Source: a virus. Taken from it: a stretch of DNA of 64,000 nt. A model generated the notes under the pieces. The model was not told the DNA's origin. It was given only the letters and a program-made list of their open reading frames with translations, and did not search any database. Position 1 is the stretch's first letter. Every line of letters starts with the position of its first letter. Shown one piece after another: positions 10,058-43,300 of this stretch. Where the stretch lies: UHGV virus genome UHGV-0038496, one strand, 5' to 3'. A program made the translations under genes and the position numbers.

Positions 10058-11341
10058 TTAGAAGAAGATCTCTTCTATTACGTTGCCATCACGGTCAACT
10101 ACATACTCATTCGGCATATCTTCCGTGCGTTTAACAGGAGCCGTGAGTATTTCGAAGCGGCAGCAACGGCATTTAGCAAAGTCGTAGTCATACGGCACAC
10201 TAACCACATCTGCTGGGTCAACAGCCACTTTAGTTAACACACCGTATCCTTTGGCATACTCAGCGCTTGCACAGTGCAGGCCGTGAGAGCAAGCCACCTT
10301 TGGGTTATCCTCTACAAAGTTACGAGGCATTGAGATAAAGCAGCCTTCGTATTGTGGGACTTTACCAGAATGGTAGTCTACACAGCTTCCGTCAGCCTTC
10401 TGAGTTACACCACGGAAACATTCTATACGACCATCAGGTAGAATGTCAATATCATTTGCCTGCATAAAGTTGTAGAGCATGTCTACAGACTTAGCAGACG
10501 GGTTACGAAGCAGACGGACCAGGAACTTGATGTAGCGTTCATCCAGAGTGCCTTCTGCCGCATCCTTTTCAATCCGTTTGGCGATAGTGGAAGTCAGGTG
10601 CACACCATAGTAGAAGAGTTCACCATCACGCATTACGAGGTGATTTTCCAGGTACACCACTTCAATACTTTCCTCTTCCTCTTTCTCCGCGTCCTTAATG
10701 AGCTGAATTGCACCATCGAAGTCGTTAGCACCAACTCTTGCAAACACTTCTTTGTAGAGTTCTTCGTTGTCCTCATCAGCTGTTACAGTGTAAGTCTCTT
10801 CACGAGTGATAATCTGGATCATGCTGCCGAAGATAACCACGACAGGTTCACCATCTGGCACTTTTGGCACCAGGTCATCAGCATTGTAAATCGCTTCATC
10901 ACTGGATGGTTCAACCTCTAAAGGTGAGGCATCACCGTAGTAAGTCGCTGCGTGTTCTGCTGGGGTGTAAACAAGGTTTTTAGGACTTGCATTTTCCCAG
11001 TGCAATACCCCTACTACATTGCCAGGGTATTTTACCACCCAACGCGGAACAGTCGCATAAGGGCCACGGTCGATGAGTGTGGAACCTTCCATGCAGTTTT
11101 CTTTGAACTTACGAGCCTCTCCACGAGAAGCAAACTCTGCATAGTAGTATTCCACTTCCAAAAATTCATTATCAATGTCGCAATTTTTCGGGGAATGTAC
11201 GTCTATCCACCATTCGCCATCGAGAAGATACGGTTTACCCACAGGAAAGCCACGGCTTTCATATTTTGCTTTTGCTACACGAGCATCGTTACGAGTTTTG
11301 TAAGTACGCACGTATACAGCTACGGTTGAACAGTCTGACAT
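10058..11341 (-). CDS. rIIB-like protein (tentative)
   Basis: 427-aa ORF immediately downstream of, and start/stop-overlapping with, the rIIA-like gene; assignment is by position only. Confidence 0.35.
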   Translation of the reverse strand: MSDCSTVAVYVRTYKTRNDARVAKAKYESRGFPVGKPYLLDGEWWIDVHSPKNCDIDNEFLEVEYYYAEFASRGEARKFKENCMEGSTLIDRGPYATVPRWVVKYPGNVVGVLHWENASPKNLVYTPAEHAATYYGDASPLEVEPSSDEAIYNADDLVPKVPDGEPVVVIFGSMIQIITREETYTVTADEDNEELYKEVFARVGANDFDGAIQLIKDAEKEEEESIEVVYLENHLVMRDGELFYYGVHLTSTIAKRIEKDAAEGTLDERYIKFLVRLLRNPSAKSVDMLYNFMQANDIDILPDGRIECFRGVTQKADGSCVDYHSGKVPQYEGCFISMPRNFVEDNPKVACSHGLHCASAEYAKGYGVLTKVAVDPADVVSVPYDYDFAKCRCCRFEILTAPVKRTEDMPNEYVVDRDGNVIEEIFF

Positions 11342-13353
11342 TATTCAGTCTCCTTCTTAGCTTTCATTAATTCAATATATTCAACAACTTCTGGTTTATC
11401 CCAGTAATCCCCCTGGATGCGTTTCAGCAACGGGTAGCGTTTGTATACACCATCCATGTAGCGACGAGCACATTTCACATGAAGGTTCACAAGATGATCT
11501 GCTCTGTCAGCCAGATCCCTATACTTCCACGAGTAGCATCCCATCCACATACGGACCTTATACTTGTTTTCTTTTACTTCTGGGTCAATGCACATTTTCA
11601 CACCGAGTTTTCCCAGTTGCATTTTATATTTTGTGTAACCTGTTGTGTTTGCAGCTTTCATCAAAAGCCAGTTCCAGGCATCCTGTTCCAGAACAGGTTT
11701 TGCATCAACCTCTGTGATAATTCTACAATCTTCTGTCACCCATGTCAAGCGACTTTCAGCAACCATGTAAACATCTTCATCCTGTGGGATACCAAAGGCT
11801 TCACGGAAGACCACCGGATCCTGTTGGTAGATGTTATTGTTTTCACCCAACCAACTGCGGCCTCTCTGGATATCACCATCATACGGGATGCAGTATTTTA
11901 TATCTTTAAAATCCTGCTTACTGATGCGTTCGCGGCAGAACCAACCGTGTTCATCCATCTTTTTGACATAATAGCCCGGTTGATACGTGCTCGCCTGGCA
12001 TTGGTCTTTTGGTGGCTTAGGTAGCTCAGACAGTAGATACAGCACGTCACTGTAGAACGGATCGTTCACATATTTAGCCAGCTCCTCTGACAGGTACGGG
12101 TCTTCCACATAGTAGACGTTGCGGCCTGTCTCATTAGCCAGATAGTTACATTTAATCCGGTTGAACTTACCGTTTGCGTCATTCAGTACCAGCTTACGGC
12201 CTGCTGAAAACTCTGAAGGGCCGTACATATCTCGTTTCAGAGAGTTAGCACCAATCCGAGTACCACCTACGAACACAGGCAACTCATTGATGACTGGGAC
12301 AGTACGACCTTGCATAATGGCTTTCCATTTAGCAGTCATGAACTTCCAGCCCACCAGACGCGAGAAGAAACCACCAGACTCTTTAATGATACGACGGGCT
12401 TCAACCCCAGAAGTGGCCTTATTCAGCAGCACTTCAATCTCTTCACCACGTTTACTGATACCTTCATCCACAAAGGCTTTCAGCTGTTCGAGGAACCCAC
12501 CATCATCATCACCCTCAATCGTCCATTCACGGCCAAGGTTGATATCGCAATCGCCAATCGGAATCTCTACCACCAGGCGCGGATAATCTACCAGAGATTC
12601 AAGATACTCTGAACGATAAGGTTGGTGACCCATCACAACACGGCTTTCCATAGAGCAAGTATTGCCGTGGTAGATGTACAGAGTCCATCCACCTTTTTTG
12701 TATGTGTAGTCAACGTTGCTTCTAAATTGCTCCAGCATCCGTGTGGTGATCGGATCCGACACCTCGAACGGAAACTTAGCATAGTTCAGGCATGAAGCTA
12801 TCGCATGGCGATACGCAGACACATCCCTTTTGCTCACAGGGAACCGGATTGTGATGCCGTTATGCTGCGTAGAAGGCTCGCTACGCGTCTTAGTGACTTT
12901 CGGTATACCTTTGTCCATAAAGACAAGATATTCGCTTCTTGTGCCGTTATAGACGCTTATAACGTTAAAGGCTTCTACCTTGCTCAGAGGTGCTTTTGAG
13001 CCAATGCCTTTGGCACCTACCAGCTCATTACTCTGGCGCTTAGTGGAGTCGCCCAACGTCATAAAAATTGTGCGTACAGTCTCTTCAGACATGCCGAGGC
13101 CTTCATCCTGCACAGAGAAGTAAGGCTCAAGGTCGGTTGGTGTATGGATCTTGATAGGCACATCTTTACGACCTGCTTCAACATGAGCATCCACAGCATT
13201 GAAGATAGGCTCACGACAGGAAGCGAGTAAAGGATCTTTGTAAATACCTTTGATAATCAGGCCAAACGTCTCCGCATTCAGCGCGATTGTCCCTGTGGTA
13301 ACTTCACTCTTACCGAGAATGTTTGCTTCTTTATGGTCACTTTTAATAATCAT
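11341..13353 (-). CDS. rIIA-like protein with N-terminal GHKL-type ATPase fold
   Basis: N-terminal MIIKSD..., then GHKL boxes NAVDAH, DEGLGM, GAKGIGSKA; 670 aa, similar in size to T4 rIIA (about 725 aa, from memory). Confidence 0.55.
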   Translation of the reverse strand: MIIKSDHKEANILGKSEVTTGTIALNAETFGLIIKGIYKDPLLASCREPIFNAVDAHVEAGRKDVPIKIHTPTDLEPYFSVQDEGLGMSEETVRTIFMTLGDSTKRQSNELVGAKGIGSKAPLSKVEAFNVISVYNGTRSEYLVFMDKGIPKVTKTRSEPSTQHNGITIRFPVSKRDVSAYRHAIASCLNYAKFPFEVSDPITTRMLEQFRSNVDYTYKKGGWTLYIYHGNTCSMESRVVMGHQPYRSEYLESLVDYPRLVVEIPIGDCDINLGREWTIEGDDDGGFLEQLKAFVDEGISKRGEEIEVLLNKATSGVEARRIIKESGGFFSRLVGWKFMTAKWKAIMQGRTVPVINELPVFVGGTRIGANSLKRDMYGPSEFSAGRKLVLNDANGKFNRIKCNYLANETGRNVYYVEDPYLSEELAKYVNDPFYSDVLYLLSELPKPPKDQCQASTYQPGYYVKKMDEHGWFCRERISKQDFKDIKYCIPYDGDIQRGRSWLGENNNIYQQDPVVFREAFGIPQDEDVYMVAESRLTWVTEDCRIITEVDAKPVLEQDAWNWLLMKAANTTGYTKYKMQLGKLGVKMCIDPEVKENKYKVRMWMGCYSWKYRDLADRADHLVNLHVKCARRYMDGVYKRYPLLKRIQGDYWDKPEVVEYIELMKAKKETE

Positions 13354-23460: not shown

Positions 23461-23635
23461 AATCAGACAACTCTACCACTTCGTGATGTGGAGAGGTTTA
23501 CGTGCATGGGCTAAAGCTCATCGTCGCTTCTTCGGTTACGGTGATGCTTATATCCATCTACATCTGGCTGCTATTCAGCACCACGATGAATACATCGAAG
23601 CAATCGTTCTTGGGGACAGAGACTTCTTACATTGA
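23450..23635 (+). CDS. hypothetical protein
   Basis: 61-aa ORF overlapping the upstream gene end. Confidence 0.35.
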   Translation: MKNKIRQLYHFVMWRGLRAWAKAHRRFFGYGDAYIHLHLAAIQHHDEYIEAIVLGDRDFLH

Positions 23636-23646
23636 TAAAAATTTTG

Positions 23647-23674
23647 TTGACAGGGACGTTAAATTGTGTATAAT
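23647..23674 (+). promoter_or_regulatory. sigma70-like promoter (TTGACA, 16-nt spacer, TATAAT)
   Basis: -35 TTGACA 23647-23652; consensus -10 TATAAT 23669-23674 preceded by TG; about 35 nt upstream of the RBS GAGGAG and the ATG at 23708. Confidence 0.6.
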
Positions 23675-23707
23675 ACACCACATCAAAGAGAGATGAGGAG
23701 TGCAGAA

Positions 23708-23893
23708 ATGAGTAAACGTTATCCTTCAGACAATCCTTATGTTATCGCACTTGGTGCACTGTGTGTTATGCTTGTACTTGTTGCAGTGATTGTGGCAGAC
23801 TATCTGGACATTCAGCAGCAGATCGAGTGCATGAAGCTGTTAAAAGCTAAAGTTGCAGCATTCCAGGCAGATATTTTCAACATTACACACTGA
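23708..23893 (+). CDS. small membrane protein (one predicted transmembrane helix)
   Basis: MSKRYPSDNPYVIALGALCVMLVLVAVIVADYL...; hydrophobic helix; RBS GAGGAG. Confidence 0.5.
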   Translation: MSKRYPSDNPYVIALGALCVMLVLVAVIVADYLDIQQQIECMKLLKAKVAAFQADIFNITH

Positions 23894-23901
23894 GGCCGGA
23901 T

Positions 23902-24042
23902 ATGGACTTGTATTTCATGGTAGACTTAGCTCTGCAAGGTTTTCTTCCAGGTGTCTTCCTGGATGCTCCACCACTCTGGTTGGCCTTCTGGTTGATGATT
24001 GTGGTAGTGATTAACGGTATTCTGGATGCATGTAAAAAGTGA
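23902..24042 (+). CDS. small membrane protein (46 aa)
   Basis: Hand-read ORF MDLYFMVDLALQGFLPGVFLDAPPLWLAFWLMIVVVINGILDACKK; RBS GAGG. Confidence 0.4.
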   Translation: MDLYFMVDLALQGFLPGVFLDAPPLWLAFWLMIVVVINGILDACKK

Positions 24043-24051
24043 GGTGCCAAA

Positions 24052-24249
24052 ATGTCTCTGTATGATATTATTATGTTTATCTTTTGGTTAATTTTTATTG
24101 TTCTGCAAGCTGTAGCGGGTGTACGAGTAGCGGAAATGAAAGGCTACGAGAAGTGGTGGCAGAAACTGCTGGCATTCTTGTTTGCTCCGTACGCAATCAT
24201 CATGATTGTTTTGTTCCTAAAAGATAAAAAACATCCTTCTGAAGAATAA
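24052..24249 (+). CDS. small membrane protein (two predicted transmembrane helices)
   Basis: MSLYDIIMFIFWLIFIVLQAVAGV...LLAFLFAPYAIIMIVLFL...; RBS GAGGTG. Confidence 0.5.
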   Translation: MSLYDIIMFIFWLIFIVLQAVAGVRVAEMKGYEKWWQKLLAFLFAPYAIIMIVLFLKDKKHPSEE

Positions 24250-24282
24250 TCCTTCCTCTTAATCATCTCCTCAAACAAAAAA

Positions 24283-24301
24283 GGGGGCCATCAAGGCCCC
24301 C
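24283..24301. terminator. bidirectional rho-independent terminator at the convergence of plus-strand early genes and the minus-strand structural cluster
   Basis: Hairpin GGGGGCC-ATCAA-GGCCCCC flanked by an A-run on the plus strand (a U-run for the minus-strand transcript) and by AAATTGTTT on the plus side. Confidence 0.7.
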
Positions 24302-24327
24302 AAATTGTTTCCTCTGTTATTATGCTA

Positions 24328-27300
24328 TTACGCTTCCTTGAAGTTAAATCCCGCACGACAAGCTGTCTGAGAGATTCCTTGTACAGAAACAGAAAGCGAT
24401 ATGTAGGTTTTACCGTTTTCCATATCGTTCCAGTTGAGTTCATAACCGCACCAACCAGATTCACTCAGTGCAACCGTAGGAGAAGAATAACCGAATTTGG
24501 CTAATCTTGACGGGTCGCCTGTGTAAATCGTTAGCTGGCCTGACGGTACACCTTTAAGTTCTGGGATATACATACCACCAAAAACTCTCATCGGGTAACT
24601 TACCAGTGTCTGGTAGCTACACGGTTGAGCAGAGAATGTCTCCATATTGCTTGTACCGTAAGGTTGCGGATAAGCCCCGTCAGTCGGGTTACCTACCCAC
24701 GCCCTGTATTGCGGGTGAATCTCTTTAACCGTAATCGTGGTCGTCTTCGTGAAGACTGTTCCGTTAGTATCAGTACAGGAGTATGTGATAACAGCTGTAC
24801 CTACACCCACGAATTTAACCTGACCTGTATCAGTGGTGATCGTGACGGCATCCGGGTTATTCGTTGACCAGGACTCTGAAGCAGCAACTGCGCCATCAGG
24901 TTGCATAGTCGGTTTACGCATAACACCGCTACCACCTTTGATACCAATTCCGTTGAACGGGTTAGGCAGATCGCTCAAGCCTGTAATAACAGTACCGGAA
25001 CCACATTTCCAGTTATAGAGTTTACTAAAGGTATATGAACCTTCGCCGTAAGAAACTTTAGCTGTAATTGTGATAACCGCTGAACCGTTTTTCAGAGCGT
25101 TGATAGCGAATTTACGGTCAGTGAGTTTGGTAGCAACAAAGACTGTTGGATCACTTGAAGTAACCTCAAAGCTCAGACTTGCTGCACCACCAGGTAAGAA
25201 GTTGTCCGTAACGTAGAAGCCTGACTGCGTACCTGACTGGCTATAAGGATAAGTACCACGTTCCTGATAGGCATTCGTTGGAGAATAGAAGCCTTTCAGC
25301 AAGAACTCATAGGTCACGCTTGAACCAGCGGCCCATGTGTGGTTATTGTTCATTAAAGCCCAGCTGTCAGAGTTACTGAATCCATAAATGGAGACACTAC
25401 CTGATTTCGCAGTTACCCTCGGAGATATTTCCAAAGCACCTTTGGTGTAAGGGCCTGCCATATTATCTCTTAAAGTACTGGTTTCATCAGAAGCCTCAAC
25501 CATGGCGGTAAGTTTTGTACCAGCGGATTCTTTACCTGTTTCATCCGTCCAGCGAATTTCAACTGGAACACACCATGCACCAAGTTCAGCGTTCCCGTTA
25601 GGTATTGTACCATCAGTTGGAGTATGGTAAGTGTATGCAAGATCTTTTCTTACCACGAACTCAGCGAGGTTGCTGTAAGCAGAGTTTGCAGCAATTATTG
25701 CACCGTCCAGAGCTTTTTGCGGGTAAATCAGTATATATTCATCCGCAATCCAACTGGTGTTGGGCATACCCCACCATTTCTTATCGCTGTCTGGAGACAG
25801 TTCGCATCCTGTTCTAACATCCATATACTGAATCCGTTTCGTATATTCGATATTAGAATAAGTTTGTGCAACTCTAGGACCCAAAGCCCCCGAAGTTTTG
25901 TCATAAACCATCATAGATAGTGTGACAGGATCCGGGCGTGATATACCGAAGCATTCTACCAGTTTTTCTTTCGGTAATGCACAACAGTTGTCATTAGACG
26001 CATTGGTTGTGGTGTAAACCAATTTGTTATTACTGTCCCATACCTGCAACTGAATGTTGCCAGGTGTCCAGCTTGTGTACTTGGACATGTCGTCGAAGTA
26101 CAGGAACAAATCCCCATCTGCGTTCGTATTTGCATACGTGTTAGCTGAGGTTTTATTCCAACATGGTAAGGTGAACCAACGAGGAATCTGTTTCTGAATA
26201 AGATTACCGCCTATTGCCTGACAAATTTCTCTAGAGAGAACTTCACGGGCAAGAGGTTTGTAACCCCATTCGATCATTGACCCATTGTAACCTTCCACTT
26301 TGTAGGCATCTGAACCTTCCTGGAACAGGATACGAGTCACAGCTGAGTTATAAGAGTTTACAGGTTTAACTGCAAACTGAGAGTAAACCCTCATCCTCAT
26401 ATTCTGCCATTCTCTACCACCGATCTCCCATTGGTTGTCATAGCAACGCATCAGAGAGGTCCAGCAGATCGGAGCCATACGCAAGCCATCGCCGAATCCT
26501 TTTGTCTGGTCATTGAATATTTTCCAGAGGAAAATGTTTACTGACCACATGGCTCTGTGGAAGTTGAACCAGTTGACAGAACGAGCAGCGTTTTGAAGAG
26601 AAGTACCATCAAGATTAGGCCACACAGCATTAACCAGCATATCTTCTGTACCTGCATCCAGAACTACCCCTCTGATTCTCGGAACACGATTTGCACGGTC
26701 TGCTTCGCACCAATTCTTGATTAGCTGGAGTTGTCTACCATAAACCTCGGACTGATCGGTTTTCTCCAACATCACCTGTTTAACATGAACAATAGGATCA
26801 CCATAGTTACCGTTAATAGCCTCTGGTAGCATAGTCTGACCAAAGTCAAAACGGATACCACTCAAAGTGTTTCCACTGTCGGTTGCCCAATCAGCTACGG
26901 AGCTGAAGTCAAACTCAAACAGCCACCAGCCTGCACCTAACAGAATACGTCTGCATTTTGAGGTGTCTGTGCTGGTGATTTTCCGAACTTCCCTATACCC
27001 CTCGCTATTAATATTATAATAGCAATCAATGATGTAAGGTGATGTACCTGAAGCATTACCTGTAGGCACATTTTTACCGATCTGATCACAACTAACAACC
27101 AGTTTTACTTGCTGGAATCCTGAGGACATTGGTACTGACATAGCGGTAGCAGCCAGATCACCACGCGGATCGTGAACTTTCTCAATACAGATGAAACCAT
27201 CCAGAACACTTGAACCAGATGGTGTTACATTCTGCGGAATAAAGTTGCAGGTCTGGTTCATTTGAGTCCATGAACCTATCTCTTTATCCATCAGGTTGCA

Positions 27301-30159
27301 ACGGGCATCGCTGTAAAGCTCACCAGGCCCCCAGTAATACTGAGCATAGCAGTTAAAGAACCATCTTGTTCCATCATATTTGTTTTTATCCACCTGGACT
27401 TCGTTGGCCTGTTTCAGCAAGAATGTATGAGTCTCCGTGAAGATAGCAGGCAGTGTCTGGCATTGGCGAGGCACATAGCCTTGTCCGTTGTTGAACCATT
27501 GGTTACAGCAATAATCACGCAAATAATCGTAACTGCAATATTTGCTGTTAGCATCTTCACTATCGAACAGCGCCAGGTTAGTACCACCAGCACACATGAT
27601 ATATTCATTAACAAATTTATCACTGCGTACAGTTTTTGAATCGACTGTGAACCATTTGGCTTCTGGATCTGTATCCTTAACACGGGTATCTTTAATACAG
27701 ACGTAACACAGGTTAGTAACACCCAGTTTTTTCTGCATATCACGTTTCATACCAAGCATGAATTTGGTGGCACTGGCACCAGGTGTAACAGTGTAATACC
27801 AGTCAGCATCGTGTGCACCAACAACACGAGGATCCTCTTTGAACGCAGCAATGCTGTATGCTACGTTGTTAGCAGGATTAGCAGGTGTTACTTTCGCCTG
27901 AATATCCCCATAGCTGTTCTTAACAATCTCTACAGTGATATCCCCACCGCGTGGTGTACGGATAATCTTACGTGAAGTATCGGCAGAACCACCACCCAGG
28001 GTTAACCCGATATTCTGGTGAGTACCGTCATAGTATTCAATCGTTGATTCCCAACGTAAACCGAAGAAACCAGCATCGTAGCTGACGACTTTCAATGTGC
28101 GTGCACCTCCAGCAGGTTTTTGAGGCGTAGGCCACGGGTTAGCATGGTCGTGAACGTTCAGAGAAGTCCCATTCTGTTCATTGACCTGGTACATTTTACC
28201 ACCAGCACCGTTAGGGTTGTATTCCCACAATGCCTGATTAGCACCTATGTATTTGTACATCTCAGGGCGTTGGTCGTAAATTTCCTGAGTCACATCGTAG
28301 GTCACAGAACCTGCATCTTTTCTGTGCAATCTGATTTTGAATGCATCAGCGTTTTCAGTTGCAGGCTGTGCAGTATCCAGACCTAAGTAAGTCGTGCTAC
28401 CCAAAGATAAGGAACGGTTCAAACCTGTAGTGTACCATGCACTATCAGCTGGGATCATAGGTATGATCGTGTTCCAGTTAATGTTTCTGGTAAGATGTGT
28501 GTGAGTACCAGTTTTATCATGATAGGTGATTTTTACATGGTACAGACCACGACGATCAATGTTTTTGTTCTGTTGGGTAATAAGACAATCCCATAAACCG
28601 AATTCCGAATGGTTAGCATAAGCTGTATACAAAGGATCAGAAACAACTGTCTGTGCAGCATTGGTGATCTCAACTTTGTCGATAAACCACGTTGCACCCC
28701 TAGGCAGAGGTTTAACTCTCAGTTGAACTGTATCCCCAACATAGATGTTGTTAACAGGGTGTTCAGACCCCCATCCGTTGACTCTACTAACTTCTTCAAC
28801 CTCAAAACTGGATACCGGAACGTTCTTAATCCAGTTTGGGTCTACCTGTGTGAAACCTTGAGAACTAAGTTGACCACCGAACAGGTTATTGCAGCCTGCG
28901 AAGTTACCACGAGGAACACCAGACCACCAAAGTTTACCGTTCACCACGGTCAGTGTGCCCATGTAACCTTCACGGTTAATACCTTGGAAGTAAACATTCT
29001 CTGCCCAACTGACAGGTGTACGTTGCTCAACATATGCAGCTGTAGCAATCGCCTGTTTGTGTTGGAACTGTGCACGGGGGTTGGCTTCAGCAGAAGACCA
29101 GCCAACATCGTTACACAGGTTACGAGAGAAGCCTCTGTACTGTTTTGAACCATTATTGAAGAAGATACCATTGGTAGCGTGACCTCTTGCAATAATCACT
29201 TCGTGAGTGTAGGTAATGTTCAATGAACGCCAGGTTTTATCTCCCCAGGAATTCTGTCCATAAAATACGTATACAGGTAAGCCAGAACCGTCTGTGTGAA
29301 TACGTTCTGTAGCAACTATGGCCCCATTCGGACCACACATAAACCATTTGTAGGTTTCACTATTACCAAGCAGATTTGCCCATGTACCGTGCTCTGGTGG
29401 ATAAACCAGGGTAAGCTGACTGTTATTACGCAAGAAATCGTAACCAGCAACCCAATAGCCGTCTGGGCCACCATAGATCACAGAGTTATCATGAACTTCC
29501 AGATTCAATGCAGGGTTTTTCCACTGGCCTGTTACAGGATCCTGAGAAGTTTCGGCAATTTTAACAGGGTTAGCATGTTGGTTTTTATCCACATGCAAAG
29601 AACCGTAGGTGTTATTACCTGAACCATAGATATCCCAGATACCTTCACCTTCAGGTGCACCAATCACCCAGCAAGTGTTGTTCATACCGCCACAGACTTC
29701 GATTAGGCGCTCAGGATGCGTATCAAGCCCCAGAGTGGTCGTAATTTGTGAAGGTAATGCAGTCCACTTAGTTACACAAACATCGTTACCACCAGCCGCT
29801 GTGGAGCCGATAAGACCAGCTGTACAACCGATGTAAAAGAATTTATGATCGAAACTTTCAATCACAAAAGAACGGTCTGCTCTCCAGACATGGTTGATGT
29901 TACGGATCGACTCGTTCGGATAAATACATTCATTGCGGTTGCCTGTTCCGCATTCGCCATATTTGTTAGCGCCTGTCAGAACCAGTAAACCATCCGCATA
30001 AAGAATTGCCAGACTATTTACATATGCTACTGAGTTGCTTGTGCCATCACTTTTATCTATTGGATAGGACAGAACAGCAAGTTCCTTGATCCCATCCTTC
30101 GAGTCCAGATGGAAATTAGCAAGTTTTAACAGAGGAATTGGAAACATTGTGTTCTCCAT
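24328..30159 (-). CDS. very large tail fibre / adhesin-like structural protein (1943 aa)
   Basis: N-terminal region with RCC1-like repeats (LVLTGANKYGECGTG, YGSGNNTYGSL); C-terminal Ig-like segments (AVITITAKVSYGEG..., VTITTDTGQVKFVGVGTAVITYS...); RBS GGAGAA. Confidence 0.6.
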   Translation of the reverse strand: MENTMFPIPLLKLANFHLDSKDGIKELAVLSYPIDKSDGTSNSVAYVNSLAILYADGLLVLTGANKYGECGTGNRNECIYPNESIRNINHVWRADRSFVIESFDHKFFYIGCTAGLIGSTAAGGNDVCVTKWTALPSQITTTLGLDTHPERLIEVCGGMNNTCWVIGAPEGEGIWDIYGSGNNTYGSLHVDKNQHANPVKIAETSQDPVTGQWKNPALNLEVHDNSVIYGGPDGYWVAGYDFLRNNSQLTLVYPPEHGTWANLLGNSETYKWFMCGPNGAIVATERIHTDGSGLPVYVFYGQNSWGDKTWRSLNITYTHEVIIARGHATNGIFFNNGSKQYRGFSRNLCNDVGWSSAEANPRAQFQHKQAIATAAYVEQRTPVSWAENVYFQGINREGYMGTLTVVNGKLWWSGVPRGNFAGCNNLFGGQLSSQGFTQVDPNWIKNVPVSSFEVEEVSRVNGWGSEHPVNNIYVGDTVQLRVKPLPRGATWFIDKVEITNAAQTVVSDPLYTAYANHSEFGLWDCLITQQNKNIDRRGLYHVKITYHDKTGTHTHLTRNINWNTIIPMIPADSAWYTTGLNRSLSLGSTTYLGLDTAQPATENADAFKIRLHRKDAGSVTYDVTQEIYDQRPEMYKYIGANQALWEYNPNGAGGKMYQVNEQNGTSLNVHDHANPWPTPQKPAGGARTLKVVSYDAGFFGLRWESTIEYYDGTHQNIGLTLGGGSADTSRKIIRTPRGGDITVEIVKNSYGDIQAKVTPANPANNVAYSIAAFKEDPRVVGAHDADWYYTVTPGASATKFMLGMKRDMQKKLGVTNLCYVCIKDTRVKDTDPEAKWFTVDSKTVRSDKFVNEYIMCAGGTNLALFDSEDANSKYCSYDYLRDYCCNQWFNNGQGYVPRQCQTLPAIFTETHTFLLKQANEVQVDKNKYDGTRWFFNCYAQYYWGPGELYSDARCNLMDKEIGSWTQMNQTCNFIPQNVTPSGSSVLDGFICIEKVHDPRGDLAATAMSVPMSSGFQQVKLVVSCDQIGKNVPTGNASGTSPYIIDCYYNINSEGYREVRKITSTDTSKCRRILLGAGWWLFEFDFSSVADWATDSGNTLSGIRFDFGQTMLPEAINGNYGDPIVHVKQVMLEKTDQSEVYGRQLQLIKNWCEADRANRVPRIRGVVLDAGTEDMLVNAVWPNLDGTSLQNAARSVNWFNFHRAMWSVNIFLWKIFNDQTKGFGDGLRMAPICWTSLMRCYDNQWEIGGREWQNMRMRVYSQFAVKPVNSYNSAVTRILFQEGSDAYKVEGYNGSMIEWGYKPLAREVLSREICQAIGGNLIQKQIPRWFTLPCWNKTSANTYANTNADGDLFLYFDDMSKYTSWTPGNIQLQVWDSNNKLVYTTTNASNDNCCALPKEKLVECFGISRPDPVTLSMMVYDKTSGALGPRVAQTYSNIEYTKRIQYMDVRTGCELSPDSDKKWWGMPNTSWIADEYILIYPQKALDGAIIAANSAYSNLAEFVVRKDLAYTYHTPTDGTIPNGNAELGAWCVPVEIRWTDETGKESAGTKLTAMVEASDETSTLRDNMAGPYTKGALEISPRVTAKSGSVSIYGFSNSDSWALMNNNHTWAAGSSVTYEFLLKGFYSPTNAYQERGTYPYSQSGTQSGFYVTDNFLPGGAASLSFEVTSSDPTVFVATKLTDRKFAINALKNGSAVITITAKVSYGEGSYTFSKLYNWKCGSGTVITGLSDLPNPFNGIGIKGGSGVMRKPTMQPDGAVAASESWSTNNPDAVTITTDTGQVKFVGVGTAVITYSCTDTNGTVFTKTTTITVKEIHPQYRAWVGNPTDGAYPQPYGTSNMETFSAQPCSYQTLVSYPMRVFGGMYIPELKGVPSGQLTIYTGDPSRLAKFGYSSPTVALSESGWCGYELNWNDMENGKTYISLSVSVQGISQTACRAGFNFKEA

Positions 30160-30194: not shown

Positions 30195-31949
30195 TTAACG
30201 TTGTGCAATAATAACGTCCACAATATCACCGAAACCTGGGTAGGTAAGTTGACAAAGTGTTACGCTACTGGCTTTGTTGTTAACTACAGGAGTTGCAGAC
30301 AGGATTGCATACTTATCACTGAATGTGACCTGATGCCCTGTAGCATCCTGACGGAAATAAATTACCACTGAGAACGGGTTAGGTTTATCTTCTTCCGAAG
30401 CTGCTGTAACACCAGGCCACGTTGCTACGTTCAGGTTGCCAGTAACTTCGACAACATACATGCTGGCATTGCCTGATGGGGTCCATGTTCCGGTAGCTCC
30501 AGCGATATCCTCAGATTCGAATTCTAGTTTGGTTGTGCGGATCTTCTCAATTGTGGTGCTACCACCAACGCTAAGGTTACCGTTGATACTAACGTTACCT
30601 GAGGCGTTCATGATCCCGCAGTTGAGAGTTTTACCCGTATAATCCGGCATCCAACCTGTTAATGTACCAGAGATTTGGAGGTTATGGATGTAGGTTGTTC
30701 CTGAACCTGCTGCGTTCAGGCTTACATCCCCATTAACTTGCAAATTGCGATTCACATTGCAATCGGTGAAGTTACCAGTATTGATGGTGGCAGTCGTACC
30801 ATTCAAGGTTGTAATTGCAGCTTTATTTGCAACAATACCGTTACCTTCAAAAGTAGCCTGCTGGTTAGATTTGAATGTGTCAGCAGACAAATCTTTAACC
30901 TTCGCATTACCCTGAATAACCACGGATCCACCAACCTGCAAGTCACCGTTGACACGGGCATCATTGGTTGTTTCCAGGTAGTTCGGGTAAATATCCAAAC
31001 CATCAACAGAGTGAACAATACCTTCAACTTTACCAAGTACTTTCAGGTCTTTGACCTGGGTTACACCGTCAACCGTCAGGGTGGGTTCCTGAACATCTTT
31101 TTGAGAATTACCACGAATATAAACGTAGTCAAAGTAGTTGTTACCACGACCATCAAAGTGAACAGTGTTGTTATCACTTACCGGAGCACCATTGTGGATC
31201 ACATCAGAGGTCAACAGGTGAGTCTCGATGTTGTAAGGATCCAGCATTGTAGAGGTCCAGTTAGTGTGGTTCTTGTCTGTCCAGTTAAAATTAATAGCGG
31301 AATCTCTACCTGTCAAGGTCAGCTCTTTGAAACGCCCAGCAAAGTCAGAAGCATTCAAGGGGCCACGTAAGGTCAAAGTACCGTTAATGACGGTATTGGT
31401 TAATTCTGATAAGCCACGAACAACCAGAGAACCAATTGTGACCTCCATACCAGCCATGGCTTCAAAAATGCTGTCTACATAGTCAACAACAAATGTGGTG
31501 TTGGCAATGGACAGAGATTTATCATTCATCGGCGGTGTCGGAACACGCGGATCACCCTGGAAGAGTGGGCTACTCAGTTTAGCATAAAATTCAGCAAGCA
31601 CGTTGGCATCGGTGTACAATCTCCACGCTGTGGATTTGGACGGATCGGATGGCAAACGTACTGGCGTAGATTTAGATGCTCCAGGAGCATACCACCATGT
31701 GATTTTTCCATCTGCTTTGTATTCGTAAATCTGGTTAAATACTGTGGTGGAAGAACCATATACCCACGGGATTGGTGGAGTTTTAAAATACAGGTTATCA
31801 AGTAATGCTTTGCGGATGGTAGGGATGGTTGTACCATCCTCTACCACAACTTCATCCACAGCAGTACCATTGACAACCAGATGGAGGCGCTCAGAGTCAA
31901 TTATGACCTGATCCACGGCCTCTTCAAAGTTTGTCATGTCTTGAGCCAC
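30195..31949 (-). CDS. tail fibre / tailspike-like protein (584 aa)
   Basis: Repetitive N/T/G/S-rich beta-type sequence; position within the fibre cluster. Confidence 0.45.
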   Translation of the reverse strand: MAQDMTNFEEAVDQVIIDSERLHLVVNGTAVDEVVVEDGTTIPTIRKALLDNLYFKTPPIPWVYGSSTTVFNQIYEYKADGKITWWYAPGASKSTPVRLPSDPSKSTAWRLYTDANVLAEFYAKLSSPLFQGDPRVPTPPMNDKSLSIANTTFVVDYVDSIFEAMAGMEVTIGSLVVRGLSELTNTVINGTLTLRGPLNASDFAGRFKELTLTGRDSAINFNWTDKNHTNWTSTMLDPYNIETHLLTSDVIHNGAPVSDNNTVHFDGRGNNYFDYVYIRGNSQKDVQEPTLTVDGVTQVKDLKVLGKVEGIVHSVDGLDIYPNYLETTNDARVNGDLQVGGSVVIQGNAKVKDLSADTFKSNQQATFEGNGIVANKAAITTLNGTTATINTGNFTDCNVNRNLQVNGDVSLNAAGSGTTYIHNLQISGTLTGWMPDYTGKTLNCGIMNASGNVSINGNLSVGGSTTIEKIRTTKLEFESEDIAGATGTWTPSGNASMYVVEVTGNLNVATWPGVTAASEEDKPNPFSVVIYFRQDATGHQVTFSDKYAILSATPVVNNKASSVTLCQLTYPGFGDIVDVIIAQR

Positions 31950-31958
31950 GTTATCTCC

Positions 31959-32273
31959 TTAAGCCTTCGGTTCTTCGTCTTTTTGATGATCAGGATGTTG
32001 GCATCCCCAACGAAGTGCAATAAACTTACTGATTAATTGTGGGCAAGCAACTGAAGGAGCATAGATCCATGCATACCATTCCGGCAGGGTATCGGTGTAC
32101 CCCATGTGCAGGAAGACGATAGTCATGGCAAGCATACCAATGTTGGACCACAACTTAGCCTGAGATACCTTATTGGGATCGTCCGGTGCTGCGACCAGCA
32201 TCCACAAAAAGGATTTGATTTTCTTGAACATCACCCCTTCTTTACAATGTCTGTACTGTGATCCATTGACCAT
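31959..32273 (-). CDS. hypothetical membrane protein
   Basis: 104-aa ORF with hydrophobic segments (FLWMLVAAP..., MLAMTIVFLHM); true start may be the internal MFKKIK. Confidence 0.4.
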   Translation of the reverse strand: MVNGSQYRHCKEGVMFKKIKSFLWMLVAAPDDPNKVSQAKLWSNIGMLAMTIVFLHMGYTDTLPEWYAWIYAPSVACPQLISKFIALRWGCQHPDHQKDEEPKA

Positions 32274-33306
32274 TTACCAGTTTCTGGAGTGGAGCGGCCC
32301 AATAGCCAGCACCACGCAATTGTTTCTTGTTACCATTCTGCCAACCACGCATTACGTAGCCAGCTCTTACACGGTTATCACCTGTACCGTCTATCAGCAT
32401 ACCTCCACAACGAACATCGGAGATAGCTGGTTGCGGTAGCGCTAATGTTAAGTTGCCGTTACCATCTGCTGTGGCACCGTTTACTGACCTGCAAACATGT
32501 CTTCCACCTACGACGTGATAATTACCACGGGTTGTGTGACTATCGCAGTTAAAACTGTTGGTATGAAGGTTACCACAAGAGGTCTGGCTTGATACAGAAG
32601 CTGTACTCCAGATACTAACAGTGTTACCGTTCATAGAACCAGCACGTAAGTTATCAGCAGCGATAATGTCACCTACTACGGACAATCTACCACGGTTTGG
32701 AGAGATAGCACACAGTTTCATCAGTGTGAACAGGCTACCACCTACAGGGTGGAATCTGTAGCGGAACCCTTCTGTACCTGTGTAGTAGGATGCTTCAAGG
32801 TCTGCTGTACCGTAGTTGTCGGACATACGAAAATCGAAATAGGTTTTATCCCCACCTTTATACCCAGGGGTATCTGCAATCGTGGAACAGTAAATCGCAC
32901 AAGTATCTGTATTGGCAGATGTGAAATTAATCCTTGTAACCCCTAAAGTCATGTTACCTTTCAAGGTATCCCCTGTCAGGTGAACATAACGGTCATCCAT
33001 CTCCGCTATTGTCAGGCAACCAAGATTTTCCCTTGCAGCAGCTTTGTCCGGTATCTCTGCCAGGTTGTTAGCAACTCGTAAAAAACGGTCATCCCACCCT
33101 GGGATGGCCTCTTCGTTCATGTATTTCAGCCAGTTACCAATCATGTTGAACTCAAAATTCATATGCTCAACAGCAATTTTCTGACTGAAGTCCCAACCCG
33201 CTAACCTCCGTTCATCATTGGGCTGGACCTTATTCAATTCTCGTGTGGTGTCAAGCAGTGCATCCTGATATGCCCACACCTCAAGTGGATAAGTCGGTTT
33301 TGGCAT
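32242..33306 (-). CDS. tail fibre protein, paralogue A (354 aa)
   Basis: N-terminus MPKPTYPLEVWA... and C-terminus ...RGAGYWAAPLQKLVNGQWITVQTL nearly identical to the 34345..35385 product; central region divergent. Confidence 0.65.
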   Translation of the reverse strand: MPKPTYPLEVWAYQDALLDTTRELNKVQPNDERRLAGWDFSQKIAVEHMNFEFNMIGNWLKYMNEEAIPGWDDRFLRVANNLAEIPDKAAARENLGCLTIAEMDDRYVHLTGDTLKGNMTLGVTRINFTSANTDTCAIYCSTIADTPGYKGGDKTYFDFRMSDNYGTADLEASYYTGTEGFRYRFHPVGGSLFTLMKLCAISPNRGRLSVVGDIIAADNLRAGSMNGNTVSIWSTASVSSQTSCGNLHTNSFNCDSHTTRGNYHVVGGRHVCRSVNGATADGNGNLTLALPQPAISDVRCGGMLIDGTGDNRVRAGYVMRGWQNGNKKQLRGAGYWAAPLQKLVNGQWITVQTL

Positions 33307-33710: not shown

Positions 33711-34328
33711 TTAGAAGGCTGGGCGATCAGGGATATGTATGTTAGGGGCTTTGTTTATATCAATCTCCAGTAGGTGAATCCTGTAAAGTTTCAGTTCCTT
33801 AACAAACTGCTCCTGTTCAGGAGATAGTATATAATCCAAGTCCAGCATGTCGCTGAAAGCTCCAAGCCTTGCTGTAGCCCATTGCAATTCTTCTTCAATG
33901 ATCTGCTGTGCAGCATCGATGTAAGGTTTGTTATCAACAACAAATTTCTCACCATCCCAGCGGTAGGCATTGATCATGTTCTCAATGTCTTCCGGGAACT
34001 CCTCTCGTTTACCGTGCAGGACTTGAAGACCATCACTGGGGAAAATACCTGCGGGATCTGTGGTTACAATTTTCAGTAAACCATCGGATTCTATAACTGC
34101 GAACAGGTATTCTACTCCAGATTCCTGGGCAATTTGCTGTAATTCTCGTGTCTGGGCGTACCAGTCACCGTGCTCATTGCGAAGGAAGTAAGCAGAATAA
34201 CGAGCGTAATCTTCAATCTCCTGCTCTGTTAATTCCAAGGTTTGTGGCTGATCTTCATCGAGAGCCAACACCATCGGGCGAGGCTCTTGCGGATCATACA
34301 GCTCAAAACCTGTAGCCATTTTGATCAT
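33711..34328 (-). CDS. putative tail fibre assembly / chaperone protein
   Basis: 205-aa acidic protein immediately downstream of a fibre gene; assignment by position and composition only. Confidence 0.3.
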   Translation of the reverse strand: MIKMATGFELYDPQEPRPMVLALDEDQPQTLELTEQEIEDYARYSAYFLRNEHGDWYAQTRELQQIAQESGVEYLFAVIESDGLLKIVTTDPAGIFPSDGLQVLHGKREEFPEDIENMINAYRWDGEKFVVDNKPYIDAAQQIIEEELQWATARLGAFSDMLDLDYILSPEQEQFVKELKLYRIHLLEIDINKAPNIHIPDRPAF

Positions 34329-34344
34329 AATATGTAACCCTCAA

Positions 34345-35385
34345 TTATAGTGTCTGAACGGTAATCCACTGTCCGTTAACAAGTTTCTGTAGCGGAGCTG
34401 CCCAGTAACCTGCACCACGGAGTTCTTTTTTGTTACCGTTAGCCCATCCTCTCATAACATAACCCGGACGTACCCTATTATTAGAAACCCCATCGATCAA
34501 CATACCGCCGCAGCGAATATCCTGAACGCCTGAAGCTGGGATACTGATAGTCAAGTTACCATTACCATCCGCGTTCACACCGTTGACTGAACGAACTACA
34601 TGGCGACCACCAACCACACAATACTGGCTACGGACTGTCATGTTATCGACGTTGGAACCACCGTTAGCATAGAAGCTACCTGTGGTCAACTGGCTCGATA
34701 CGCTGACGTTACCGAAGGAAGCTGTACCAGTAATGGTGACTGTGTTGGAACGCACGTTGTCCTGTGCTTCAATGTTACCAATGACTTTGAGAAGTGCACG
34801 GTTAACAGAGATAGCATTCAGATGCATCAGTGTAAACTCTGGGTTGATATCCGGTTGTGTAGGTTGGAATCTCCAACGGAAAGCATCAACTATGGAAGTA
34901 CCACCATCGTCGAATGAACCAACGTTATCCATCAAGCAGAAGTCTAACAAGGTTTTATCTGGACTGATTGTGGTTTCTATCCACGCCGCATCTGTTTCCG
35001 CTGCCGCAAAGTTAATGCGTTGCAATCCCAGAGGACCTGTCATTGTGTCACCAGTGATCTTGACGTAACGTGCGTCAGTCTCAGCTTTAGTAACAATGCC
35101 GAGGTTTTTACGGGCAATCTCTACATTCAAAAGATCGCTCAAGTTGTTGTCCTTAATAAGATAACGTCCTTCCATAGACGGGATCTGATCTTCGGAAATG
35201 TATTTGGCCCAGGTAGCCAGCATGTTGATGAGGTAGTTCAACTCTTCACATGATGGTTTCTGCCCTTTATCCCAACCTTTTCTCCAGAGATCGTCAATAG
35301 GACGCATCTTATTCTGTTTATGGGAGTTGGGGAGGATTTGATCCTCCGCAGCCCATATCTCTAAAGGAAAACTAGGTTTAGCCAT
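34345..35385 (-). CDS. tail fibre protein, paralogue B (346 aa)
   Basis: Shares N-terminal (MAKPSFPLEIWA...) and C-terminal (...RGAGYWAAPLQKLVNGQWITVQTL) blocks with the 32242..33306 product. Confidence 0.65.
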   Translation of the reverse strand: MAKPSFPLEIWAAEDQILPNSHKQNKMRPIDDLWRKGWDKGQKPSCEELNYLINMLATWAKYISEDQIPSMEGRYLIKDNNLSDLLNVEIARKNLGIVTKAETDARYVKITGDTMTGPLGLQRINFAAAETDAAWIETTISPDKTLLDFCLMDNVGSFDDGGTSIVDAFRWRFQPTQPDINPEFTLMHLNAISVNRALLKVIGNIEAQDNVRSNTVTITGTASFGNVSVSSQLTTGSFYANGGSNVDNMTVRSQYCVVGGRHVVRSVNGVNADGNGNLTISIPASGVQDIRCGGMLIDGVSNNRVRPGYVMRGWANGNKKELRGAGYWAAPLQKLVNGQWITVQTL

Positions 35386-40318: not shown

Positions 40319-43300
40319 TTACGCTAAACGCACAATATAGTTAAATGCAACGTTCTTAACGGTGTTTTCCGTATTACCCGCAGCATTAACCGTGATTGTG
40401 TGGCTGTGTGCACCAATACCAACTGTATGACTGTGTGAGCCGATACCTACGGAGTGGGTGTGAGTACCATTCCCGTCGATAGATCCACTCAGTGAGTGTG
40501 TGTGGGCACCATCCCAAGAAGTTTTAGCCGCCCTCGACACAGCTGTTTTACCAGTAAACGAGCTACTGGTAAGTTTCCACAAAGTCTGTGAACCCTCAGT
40601 AGTGTAACCATCCTGGAAAGTACTAGCACCTGCACCATCCTGGACCTGACAACCGGAACGAGCGTGTTGGTGAGAACCACCAGAACCAACGCTACCCTTG
40701 AGACTGTGACCGTGCCAGCCACTTTCGCCAGTAGTTTTACTACCATAGTTGAAACCAGAAGTGGTTTTAGTACCAAGATCCACACTGTTGGAACTTGCAC
40801 CGTGGGTGTGTGATTTGATACCGTCAGCTTCGGTTGACAGAACATCACGACCAGTGGCTGGTTTACCTTTAATGGTCTGACCACGCATGTCAGGGAGAAC
40901 CCCGCTCGGATACGCAGCAGCCAGTTTAGGATAAGCAGCTTTGTCGAATCCCTGACCAGCCATGATAGCATAACCAGAAGGTGCTGTGTCAGTAGGCCAC
41001 GGTAGCGGAACACCAACCGGAACTCCTGTTTCAGCAAGGTTAACACCATCCATAGTCAGGAACTGGTTTGCTGTAACAATATTACCAGTAATGTTACCGT
41101 TTACTGAGAAATATTTATGCAAGTTATCTTCAGCTGTACCACAGTGGAATACCCAATCGGAAACACCCTGCTCGATATCGGTAGTATCTAAGATTTGGAA
41201 TTCCAAAACGTTCTTACGAGTACTTCCGTTACCCCAATAGTACAATCTGCCGTTATTAGCAGGTAAATTGGAGTTGTTGCTAGGATTGTCAGAACCACCA
41301 ACATGAATGAGCAACTCTTTATCTGTTTCGTCAACATTACGATTCGAGCGTAACTGGATAGCTTTACCAGAATCGTGCCGCCAAACTTCCCACATGTAAG
41401 TTGACCCAGTTCTATCCATGTTACCAACACGGGTATATCTGTCACCAAAACGTGTGATGTACTCCTGTACGCAGCCTTTCGGATTGTTTGCATTGTTCTG
41501 GTAAACAATCAGAGTACCAGCGTACGGTGCTGGGTAATGCCTTTCAGTTGTACAGTCAGCATCTTTTGGTTGGTGGTAAATACCCTCACGAGTACCATCG
41601 TAAGTGTTCAGGTCTGTAGCGTCAAGGCCTACACCTTTATGAGTTAAGATCCTGTTCCATGGTCTGTGATAACCAGCTTCAATGGATCTTGTATACATCT
41701 GGTCAAGGCGACCAGCCATCTGGAAAGCATAGTTTCCAGAGAATGATACAGATATACCACCAACAACCATTGAACCTTCAGGCCCGTTGGTGCTGCCAGC
41801 CATCACTTTGCACGGATTGTTAGCCCCGAACTGGTTGTTCCAGTCACCACTTGTATGGCATACAAAACCACTAGGTGAGTGGAGAGTACCGTCAGCATTA
41901 AAGTTCCAGAATTTATGAGCAGAACCTGTCATATCCCGGACAATAACCTGACCACCAGAACCTGCTGCACGGAATTCAGCCTGACCTAAGTTACCGCATT
42001 TAGAGGTGAACGTACAGTTGATTAAATCTTCTGTACCCTCGGATCTTGTCAGGAAGCCTGCGTTAGATTCAAGAGCTTTACGGGTTGTCTGGCTACCTGG
42101 GCAGATGTATTTCAGACCATTGAACCAGAGTTCTGTTTCACCCATCTCTGTTTTGTTCTGCAAGAACCATTTTTCTCTGGAACCACGATACATCCATTGG
42201 TTACAGTAGAAACCGCTTACACCACCTGTAAAGTCGAAGAGTGCACGCGTGTTGGTTATGCCGTCACCCAATAATGCCTCTTTAAGGCTGGTGATACCTG
42301 CTTTGTATACAACCCCATCGTTATTTTCCGTAGGAGTACCGGATACAAAGTCGTTAGCATAAGTACGAACATCTGTTACTACAGAACTTGCATAAACATA
42401 GACAGGGAACGCTTTTTCATGGACATAGATGGCAGCATATTGCTGATTGCCACGAGTAGGAACAAGCAACCCCAAAATGGACGCTTCATTCTGGTAAAAG
42501 TTGATAATACCGTAGGCAGAATCACCTCTGTCTGTCCAACCACCAGTGCGATACCAACATCTCAGGGTGGAACAGTTCATAGGTTCACTACCCATCGCAG
42601 ATCTGGTATGAATGAGGAGGTCTGTACCAATTGTACCGTTTACCGAAGGTGTGTTGATAATAACAGGATAATATTTATCCTCTTCCGCACCATCAGGTTT
42701 CTGAATTACGAAAGGTGTCGTGTTTACAGCAGAACCACCTGTACCAGTGCTGCTACCACCGCCTTCACCACCGGAGATACCTATGCGTTCTAACCATGCT
42801 TTAACTTCGGTATCAGATACACAGCCTGTACCACCTTTTTCTACTGGGAGTACACCTGTGATCTTATCATCGGTTAAACCAACAGAATCCATTTTACCTA
42901 AAGCACGACCACCGAGGTTAGTCCATGCAGTGGCTGGATCTTTGGCACCAGTACCACCATTGGCAATAGGAAGTGGGATAGTACCTAGACCTTTAGAAGA
43001 ATAACATCCCCAAGCGTCACCACCAGTATTTACGTACAAATACGCAGTACCTGCTTTATTACAAAGCTGAGTCTCACCACCAGTTGTCTGAGTCAGACGA
43101 TCAACCGAAAGGTTGACACGAGCATCAGCAACGGTTCTCGCACCTGTACCGCCTTGGGAGATACTCAAAGGTTGCCAGTTACCAATTTTAGGGTTAAATG
43201 CCCCCCACTGACCGTCAGCATCAACCTGTAAGTAGCAGCCGTTAGCTTGAACGTCAGTAGAACAAACGATAGTCCTTGTATCGGTGGAACGGATGAAGCG

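Follow-up and report, generated by a model that had tools for sequence, protein, structure and literature searches.

The 64,000-nt stretch of viral genome UHGV-0038496 analyzed here (the window; all positions are coordinates within it) carries, at positions 24328 to 30159 on the minus strand, an uninterrupted open reading frame (ORF) of 1,943 codons plus a stop that encodes a 215-kDa protein. No other ORF in the window is as long, in agreement with an earlier note on this DNA; the second longest encodes 1,635 aa (40319 to 45226). The gene comes last in a long minus-strand block that holds head, tail, baseplate, and fiber genes. Gene order in the window and matches to PHROGs place it at the end of the tail fiber module, in agreement with the earlier description of a tail protein encoded by the last gene of the structural operon. 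We describe below the domain architecture predicted for this protein, its assignment to the family of rV5 gp27 in phages of the Vequintavirinae type, and its possible role as an accessory adhesin.

The segments delineated along the gene are listed below, with residues numbered from the annotated start. Values of the predicted local distance difference test (pLDDT) come from AlphaFold2, which was run on two overlapping halves of the protein (aa 1 to 1150 and 850 to 1943) with 16 to 17 sequences and gave mean pLDDT values of 50 and 58, respectively.

24328 to 30159, minus strand: the complete gene, 1,943 codons plus stop
30100 to 30147, minus strand: start region, with a second ATG at 30147 to 30145 (M5), GGAG at 30154 to 30157, and the conserved peptide MFPIPLL... 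(aa 5 to 20)
28834 to 30027, minus strand: candidate divergent RCC1-like domain (about aa 45 to 442), from PHROGs, HMMER, and hhalign
aa 45 to 89, 90 to 153, 154 to 218, 219 to 271, 272 to 327, 328 to 392, and 393 to 442, minus strand: seven blades mapped in that domain by transitive (chained) alignment
27610 to 28824, minus strand: immunoglobulin (Ig)-like beta-sandwich block (aa 446 to 850) of about three domains, all-beta with a helical insert at aa 624 to 641; pLDDT 70 to 86
27145 to 27609, minus strand: Cys-rich segment (aa 851 to 1005, 10 Cys); pLDDT 25 to 45
26752 to 27144, minus strand: beta-sandwich assigned to no family (aa 1006 to 1136); pLDDT 70 to 86 in both overlapping models
26095 to 26751, minus strand: conserved, mostly helical core (aa 1137 to 1355); pLDDT 25 to 45
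25240 to 26094, minus strand: variable beta-rich block (aa 1356 to 1640), beta strands; pLDDT 55 to 85
24670 to 25239, minus strand: two predicted Ig-like domains (aa 1641 to 1830), the second (about aa 1726 to 1810) of the Big_2 type; phrog_215 and phrog_341; pLDDT 80 to 89
24331 to 24669, minus strand: C-terminal beta domain (aa 1831 to 1943), missing from the relatives P0012 and P0013; pLDDT 60 to 81

Translation probably begins four codons downstream of the annotated start. The second ATG (nt 30147) has GGAG 6 nt ahead of it, and M-[FLYI]-P-[IF]-P opens every relative and positional orthologue compared; M5 is therefore the likelier initiator, which would give a protein of 1,939 aa. Relative to its nearest relative (88% aa identity, on a 140-kb metagenomic contig), the ratio of nonsynonymous to synonymous substitution rates (dN/dS) was 0.135 overall and 0.06 to 0.29 per domain, including 0.08 for the propeller region, 0.14 for aa 1137 to 1355, 0.24 for aa 1356 to 1640, and 0.06 for aa 1641 to 1830. 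The ratio was low in every domain, and the gene is therefore a constrained coding sequence from end to end, under purifying selection along its whole length.

The full-length protein matched phrog_15684, for which no function is annotated, in the PHROGs search (E = 0; 1,929 bits). By tblastn, homologs with 46 to 47% identity over 99 to 100% of the protein were found in more than 100 Vequintavirus genomes, and 108 records covered at least 80% of the query. A megablast search of the gene against phages returned no DNA-level match, i.e., the homology was visible by protein search only. Vequintavirus genomes annotate the gene as "structural protein with Ig domain," "Ig-like domain-containing protein," or "lateral tail fiber protein with intimin domain." The order of the genes is the same, gene for gene, in the BASEL phages JeffSchatz and MaxBurger: baseplate proteins, deacetylase fiber, short tail fiber, chaperone, small ORF, second short tail fiber, small ORF, glycosidase-type fiber, the gene under study, and a strand switch. 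Full-length homology and this identical order identify it, at the level of sequence, as the orthologue of rV5 gp27 (1,878 aa, 208 kDa), LL12 gp27, bas54_0041, and bas55_0041 in a Vequintavirinae-type myophage.

The phage itself diverges from the rest of the group: nucleotide identity is about 75% at best, and this only in the genes for sheath and neck. Its baseplate proteins are 76 to 79% identical to those of Bas54, and the large protein's N-terminal domain is about 70% identical. Fifteen metagenomic relatives are closer (54 to 89% identity) than the rV5 type (47%). Members of the rV5 gp27 group share with the UHGV-0038496 protein full-length homology (47 to 50%), the position as last tail-module gene followed by a strand switch, and the N-terminal domain (70% identical); they differ from it in aa 1356 to 1640, which are essentially unrelated (18%), and in the C-terminal Ig-like region (about 35%). 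The family is already known and annotated, and the present protein adds one divergent member, which would act much as other accessory surface proteins of phages with Ig domains do.

An RCC1-like N-terminal region had been proposed in the earlier note from motifs recurring in the first 250 or so residues. Both quoted motifs were located in the N-terminal part of the protein (LVLTGANKYGECGTG at aa 59 to 73 and YGSGNNTYGSL at aa 178 to 188), and the proposal was upheld by profile-level homology to true RCC1 proteins; the propeller-like character stood, and the extent had been underestimated, as the region reaches about aa 442. Pfam matches to the N terminus were subthreshold (RCC1, 16.9 bits versus a cutoff of 21.7; WD40_RLD, 19 to 21 bits versus 150), i.e., the gathering cutoffs of PF00415 and PF25390 were not reached. 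In PHROGs, phrog_4219 ("regulator of chromosome condensation") matched aa 4 to 423 (E = 7e-9) and phrog_11922 ("tail protein") matched aa 41 to 192. An exhaustive HMMER search of 1.84 billion representative proteins with the N-terminal profile yielded 18 proteins, comprising phage "tail proteins" of 830 to 890 aa that share the N terminus and genuine RCC1-repeat proteins. Among the latter, P0024 was matched in seven stretches (E = 7e-19), and P0024, P0025, P0029, P0030, P0031, and P0033 together spanned E values of 7e-19 to 9e-4, with 154 to 348 bits on WD40_RLD. The tail protein group passes the Pfam RCC1 cutoff (P0018, P0020, P0021, and P0026, at 24 to 36 bits on PF00415) and also contains Big_2 domains.

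Profile-profile alignment with hhalign linked these groups in a chain. The family of the UHGV-0038496 protein aligned with the tail protein family over 411 columns (99.9%, E = 3.5e-33), and the tail protein family aligned with canonical RCC1 propellers over 322 columns (98.7%, E = 1.5e-16). The direct alignment of the former family with RCC1 covered aa 26 to 215 (94.3%). A shallow N-terminal profile aligned with a single RCC1 protein over one blade (78%), and a family-level alignment was required. A single-repeat hidden Markov model found one significant blade (aa 52 to 91, 28.6 bits) and one weak blade. The motif G-x-[ND]-x-x-G occurs four times in aa 1 to 443 and not once in the remaining 1,500 residues; every blade retains a degenerate "hydrophobic strand, G-x-N-x-x-G" signature, and blades 4 to 7 are highly degenerate with long inserts.

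On these grounds, aa 45 to 442 (approximately) are a candidate divergent seven-bladed RCC1-like propeller. The assignment is homology based because AlphaFold2 failed to model the region (pLDDT of <50 for aa 1 to 446 with a 17-sequence alignment). Proteins with RCC1-like repeats (PF00415, PF13540, and PF25390) share the repeat signature, and homology to them extends over three blades directly and over seven via intermediates; unlike them, the present protein lies below the Pfam cutoffs and has degenerate blades 4 to 7, and nucleotide-exchange activity is not expected of it. Because no description of RCC1-like propellers in phage tail proteins was found in the literature, the module represents a modest new annotation.

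Confident beta-rich blocks in the AlphaFold2 models (pLDDT 70 to 89) lay at about aa 450 to 570, 690 to 850, 1010 to 1135, 1360 to 1630, and 1660 to 1940. The N-terminal 446 residues, aa 851 to 1000, and aa 1160 to 1350 were unusable, and fold searches were uninformative for these stretches. Structure prediction thus gave a confident result for the C-terminal Ig region (pLDDT 80 to 89) and no confident model for the propeller region. The predicted C-terminal Ig-like domains, of the Big_2 type at aa 1641 to 1830, were confirmed by sequence profiles and models together. The family phrog_215 matched aa 1747 to 1826 (E = 3e-11 to 5e-11), and hhalign aligned aa 1726 to 1808 with Big_2 segments (95.7%, E = 8.8e-9). 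No match to Pfam Big_2 (PF02368) was found in the protein by hmmscan up to an E value of 5, i.e., the gathering cutoff was not reached; the rV5-type orthologues P0015 (33.5 bits) and P0014 (27.9 bits) pass that cutoff (22.8 bits). Profile-profile evidence thus supports both domain types named in the earlier note, RCC1 and Big_2, though below the Pfam cutoffs.

A Foldseek search with the model of aa 850 to 1943 recovered strings of Ig-like domains, namely, NUP210 (E = 3.9e-12), cadherins, S-layer proteins, titin, PrgB Ig domains, and invasin (1cwv; E = 3.6e-7). The model of aa 1 to 1150 gave weaker matches (E = 5e-5 at best) to Ig arrays, among them nectin and LRIG1, and the hits in the viral library were fragments of Vequintavirus orthologues, PVP-SE1 gp40, and further phage structural proteins that bear Ig domains. 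Because the output gives no query ranges, none of these matches can be tied to a particular block. Further Ig-like beta-sandwiches are predicted by the models at aa 446 to 850, where they are less precisely placed and where aa 508 to 560 gave a weak, subthreshold Pfam match to Bact_surface_Ig-like. Ig-like domains probably also fill aa 1356 to 1640. This block is 88% identical within the clade and 18 to 20% identical to P0014 and P0015, and it is a candidate specificity module because its identity to the rV5 type is only 18%.

The central block of about 500 aa (aa 851 to 1355; 26095 to 27609) is the only really unexplained part of the protein, with no relative outside the family in Pfam, NCBIfam, PDB sequences, or a large protein collection. 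Pfam searches with the whole protein and four subsegments gave subthreshold matches only, and NCBIfam gave none. Single-sequence and family-profile searches of PDB sequences found nothing meaningful for the whole protein, the N terminus, or the center. One further protein came from each of the word-index searches for homologues made with the N-terminal and the central profile, and neither was informative. In the alignment of relatives, aa 1137 to 1355 contain the invariant residues E1172-D1173, H1201-R1202, E1245, E1289, and E1297 and nine invariant Trp residues.

Conservation is graded along the chain. Identity to the rV5 type is 70.6% in the propeller, 53% in aa 446 to 575, 51% in aa 576 to 850, and 45% in aa 851 to 1005; it is 32% in aa 1006 to 1136, 49% in aa 1137 to 1355, 18% in aa 1356 to 1640, 35% in aa 1641 to 1830, and 34% in aa 1831 to 1943. 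The gradient therefore runs from 70% at the N terminus, near the level of the baseplate proteins, to 18 to 35% in the distal half. Modules have also been exchanged or lost among the metagenomic relatives. In P0009, aa 446 to 850 are swapped for another module (25 to 47% identity there) between flanks that are 83 to 95% identical, and P0012 and P0013 (1,711 to 1,716 aa) are without the last 230 or so residues.

The N-terminal module also heads the last tail-module gene in Phapecoctavirus (891 aa) and Seunavirus (567 aa in GAP31; PVP-SE1 gp40 is the counterpart). These tail proteins (Schickermooser gp247/phAPEC8_00180, GAP31_232, and PVP-SE1 gp40; phrog_11922) resemble the UHGV-0038496 protein in genomic position, in the start peptide, and in the RCC1-like N terminus (the 411-column alignment above), which is followed by Big_2 domains. 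They differ in length (567 to 891 aa), in the absence of the middle region of about 900 residues, and in their less degenerate RCC1 repeats, which pass Pfam. The positional counterpart in phi92 is gp152 ("lambda protein V-like fold"; 203 aa; 16321 to 16929 of L006), which corresponds to residues 1 to 16 of the Phapecoctavirus protein fused to residues 411 to 587 (62% identity to the phAPEC8 type). It has kept the first 16 residues and two Big_2 domains; the RCC1 module (aa 17 to 410) and the distal part are gone. It shares the start peptide with the present protein, from which it differs in having no RCC1-like module or distal region, and only the first 7 residues are common to both. Another phi92 protein, gp150, had been suggested as a relative (PMC7229145) and was set aside, the positional counterpart being gp152. 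The next ORF in phi92, gp153 (L006, 17096 to 17983), is annotated without a ribosome-binding site.

Studies of the orthologues bear on the function of the protein. In Bas54, transposon sequencing showed that bas54_0041 tolerates disruptive insertions (preprint 10.1101/2025.11.20.689424); the gene is therefore dispensable for infection of Escherichia coli K-12 and for producing infective virions. Some lateral fiber genes were conditionally essential on clinical isolates in the same preprint. The primary glycan receptor is credited to the deacetylase fiber and the terminal receptor, the lipopolysaccharide (LPS) core, to the short tail fibers (PMC8594841 and PMC11990801); the 2021 BASEL paper names the primary receptor as enterobacterial common antigen (ECA), the 2025 paper as the N4 glycan receptor. 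In rV5 virions, gp27 was detected by mass spectrometry from 3 peptides and 9 spectra (3.1% coverage), and this weak detection supports an accessory role, as does the moderate allelic variation that BASEL reports for the gene. The suggestion in the earlier note that the protein is a candidate primary adhesin was not sustained in view of the dispensability on K-12, the receptors credited to other fibers, and the three rV5 virion peptides.

On balance, we favor the view that the protein is a very large, low-copy, modular accessory adhesin fiber of a Vequintavirinae-type myophage rather than its main adhesin. We infer its docking role, polarity, oligomeric state, and ligand as follows. The conserved N-terminal end (the start peptide, perhaps with the propeller) would dock the protein onto the baseplate and fiber network, and the chain would reach outward as a flexible, beads-on-a-string fiber that is probably not trimeric. 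The variable distal modules would bind glycans on the host surface weakly and reversibly, and these contacts might raise adsorption on particular hosts or in particular niches while not being needed on a laboratory strain. The central conserved core may contribute a glycan-binding or glycan-processing activity.

Several observations weigh against this interpretation. Support for gp27 as a virion component is thin, given the 3.1% coverage and a protein list that includes unlikely proteins, and cryo-electron microscopy of Bas49, Bas54, phiTE, and phi92 has assigned no density to the orthologous protein. The propeller, whose pLDDT is below 50, is a fold without three-dimensional confirmation; an N-terminal propeller would also be an unusual means of anchoring and could itself bind the ligand instead. 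In phi92 gp152 the propeller has been lost and the start peptide and Ig domains kept, a pattern that agrees with anchoring by the peptide alone. Finally, the functional data all come from orthologues with an identity of about 50%, and a preprint is among the sources.

The reading implied by the earlier note and by the sense of the BASEL annotation, in which the protein is a classical trimeric lateral tail fiber and the primary receptor-binding protein of the phage, appears unlikely. It draws on the location of the gene inside the tail fiber module, on the annotation "lateral tail fiber protein with intimin domain," and on the bands of about 174 kDa and about 288 kDa seen for rV5 virions in sodium dodecyl sulfate-polyacrylamide gel electrophoresis. 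According to the BASEL work, the orthologous gene is one of three large fiber genes with allelic variation, which is moderate in its case. However, no coiled coil, triple beta-helix, collar, S74 chaperone domain, or other trimeric fibrous fold was detected in the protein by Pfam or PHROGs, and its fold matches are to Ig arrays only. The neighboring 1,635-aa fiber matched many tail fiber families in the same PHROGs search, and the Ig-like domains of the present protein fold confidently as a monomer in AlphaFold2. The dispensability of bas54_0041 on K-12 and the crediting of the primary (ECA or N4 glycan receptor) and terminal (LPS core) receptors to other fibers also argue against this reading. 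Only three fibers are visible at the Bas49/Bas54 baseplate, two of which are described as being of the short tail fiber and beta-helix classes.

Equally improbable, in our estimation, is a reversed polarity or another site on the virion, with the propeller as the head that binds a conserved glycan of the host or the environment or the whole protein as a Hoc-type decoration of the capsid, neck, or sheath, e.g., for adherence to mucus. The strong constraint on the propeller (dN/dS, 0.08) and the classification of phrog_215, which matches the Big_2 domain, as "head and packaging" would suit this arrangement, as would phi92, where the propeller is absent and the rest is kept. Beta-propellers bind glycans in some phage receptor-binding proteins, reportedly including Gp45 of Staphylococcus phage phi11, and virion proteins with Ig arrays are typically dispensable in the laboratory (Fraser 2006, as cited in PMC7344957). 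Against it, the gene stands at the end of the tail fiber module and not amid the head genes, the low spectral counts speak against a high-copy decoration, and the variability of the C-terminal half is in keeping with the specificity end being distal, as is usual. We give still less credence to a protein that is mainly a virion-borne enzyme (a glycanase or esterase), with the central block as its catalytic core and the Ig and propeller modules as carriers, a reading compatible with an accessory fiber. Three features point toward an enzyme: aa 1137 to 1355 include Glu, Asp, His, and Arg residues as well as nine Trp residues that are invariant, dN/dS is 0.14 there, and neighboring fibers of this phage group bear glycosidase and deacetylase domains; the central block, however, resembles no enzyme family or solved structure, and its AlphaFold2 model is unreliable. 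A nonvirion protein, e.g., a late protein acting at the cell surface or in lysis, is very improbable. Weak proteomic support and the dispensability of the orthologue for infective virions would be expected of such a protein, but the position in the tail fiber operon is conserved across four genera, the domains are typical of virion surface proteins, and no signal peptide or membrane segment was evident at the N terminus when the sequence was read by eye.

A broader version of the accessory adhesin fiber is more doubtful than the fiber itself, although we hold it to be somewhat less improbable than the alternatives above. The proteins encoded by the last gene of the tail module might form a distinct, nontrimeric class of accessory fibers, with a short, invariant N-terminal docking peptide, an insertable glycan-binding RCC1-like propeller, and, in the giant versions, an orphan central block of about 500 residues that represents a new fold acting on or binding carbohydrates. 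The propeller is present in Vequintavirus, Phapecoctavirus, and Seunavirus and is precisely absent from phi92.

Tandem Ig-like beta-sandwiches liken the protein to invasin and intimin, S-layer proteins, the C terminus of lambda gpV, and T4 Hoc (invasin 1cwv at E = 3.6e-7, EA1/Sap/SbsB, PrgB, and Ig-bearing major tail proteins), and many such phage Ig proteins share with this family (bas54_0041) the property of being dispensable in the laboratory. Unlike intimin and invasin, it has no beta-barrel anchor, LysM domain, or C-type-lectin tip detectable with Pfam. No Pfam match to an intimin or invasin family was found in it despite the "intimin domain" annotation, and the resemblance is to the Ig array only. 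It differs from T4 Hoc and the Ig modules of gpV in being far larger and in not being encoded with head genes. Phages of the Vequintavirinae and related groups have broad host ranges and are used for therapy and biocontrol. The domain map presented here (start peptide, RCC1-like propeller, Ig arrays, orphan core, and variable distal block) may aid the design of truncations, knockouts, and host range engineering, and it flags the protein as an accessory rather than an essential determinant. No general concept is changed, as the family already carries annotations and accessory phage proteins with Ig domains are familiar.

Two structured elements flank the gene:

24283 to 24301, no strand assigned: hairpin GGGGGCC-ATCAA-GGCCCCC, with a 7-bp all-G:C stem, 26 nt past the stop codon
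30168 to 30187, minus strand: stem-loop GCCTCTCC-TGCG-GGAGAGGC, with an 8-bp stem, between the stop codon of the upstream 584-aa fiber gene and the start of the gene

The first had been described in the earlier note as a bidirectional terminator. On the minus strand, the hairpin is followed by a T-run (TTTTTTGTTT), which is in keeping with that description; on the plus strand, its 3' tail is only AAATTGTTTC. The bidirectional claim is thus half convincing, because the T-run is on the minus strand only. The positional orthologue in phage Schickermooser has an annotated predicted terminator on either side. Small plus-strand ORFs run convergently toward the hairpin. A perfect sigma-70 consensus (TTGACA, 16 nt, and TATAAT; 12 of 12 positions) lies at 23647 to 23674 on the plus strand, within the inter-operon stretch of about 870 bp (23461 to 24327). 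Downstream of it are two plus-strand ORFs with hydrophobic segments (23666 to 23893, 75 aa; 24052 to 24249, 65 aa), which stop just ahead of the shared hairpin. The upstream stem-loop was also considered as a terminator and did not score as one.

Other observations concern neighboring genes and relatives. In L003, the closest long relative contig, a 369-aa ORF on the minus strand (11189 to 12298), downstream and on the opposite strand, matches YadA_anchor (PF03895); downstream of the gene in the window, six plus-strand ORFs were scanned, and none hit this family. The upstream 584-aa fiber gene lies at 30195 to 31949 on the minus strand, and its L003 counterpart is listed under PF26208/PF26209 ("Phage_phiTE_241_N/_C") in precomputed Pfam data. 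PF26918 is listed for the rV5-type orthologue P0015. Farther upstream on the minus strand, two short tail fiber paralogues (32242 to 33306, 354 aa, and 34345 to 35385, 346 aa; phrog_4465) flank an assembly chaperone gene (33711 to 34328), as in Vequintavirus, and are 48% (the first) and 73% (the second) identical to their Bas54 counterparts.

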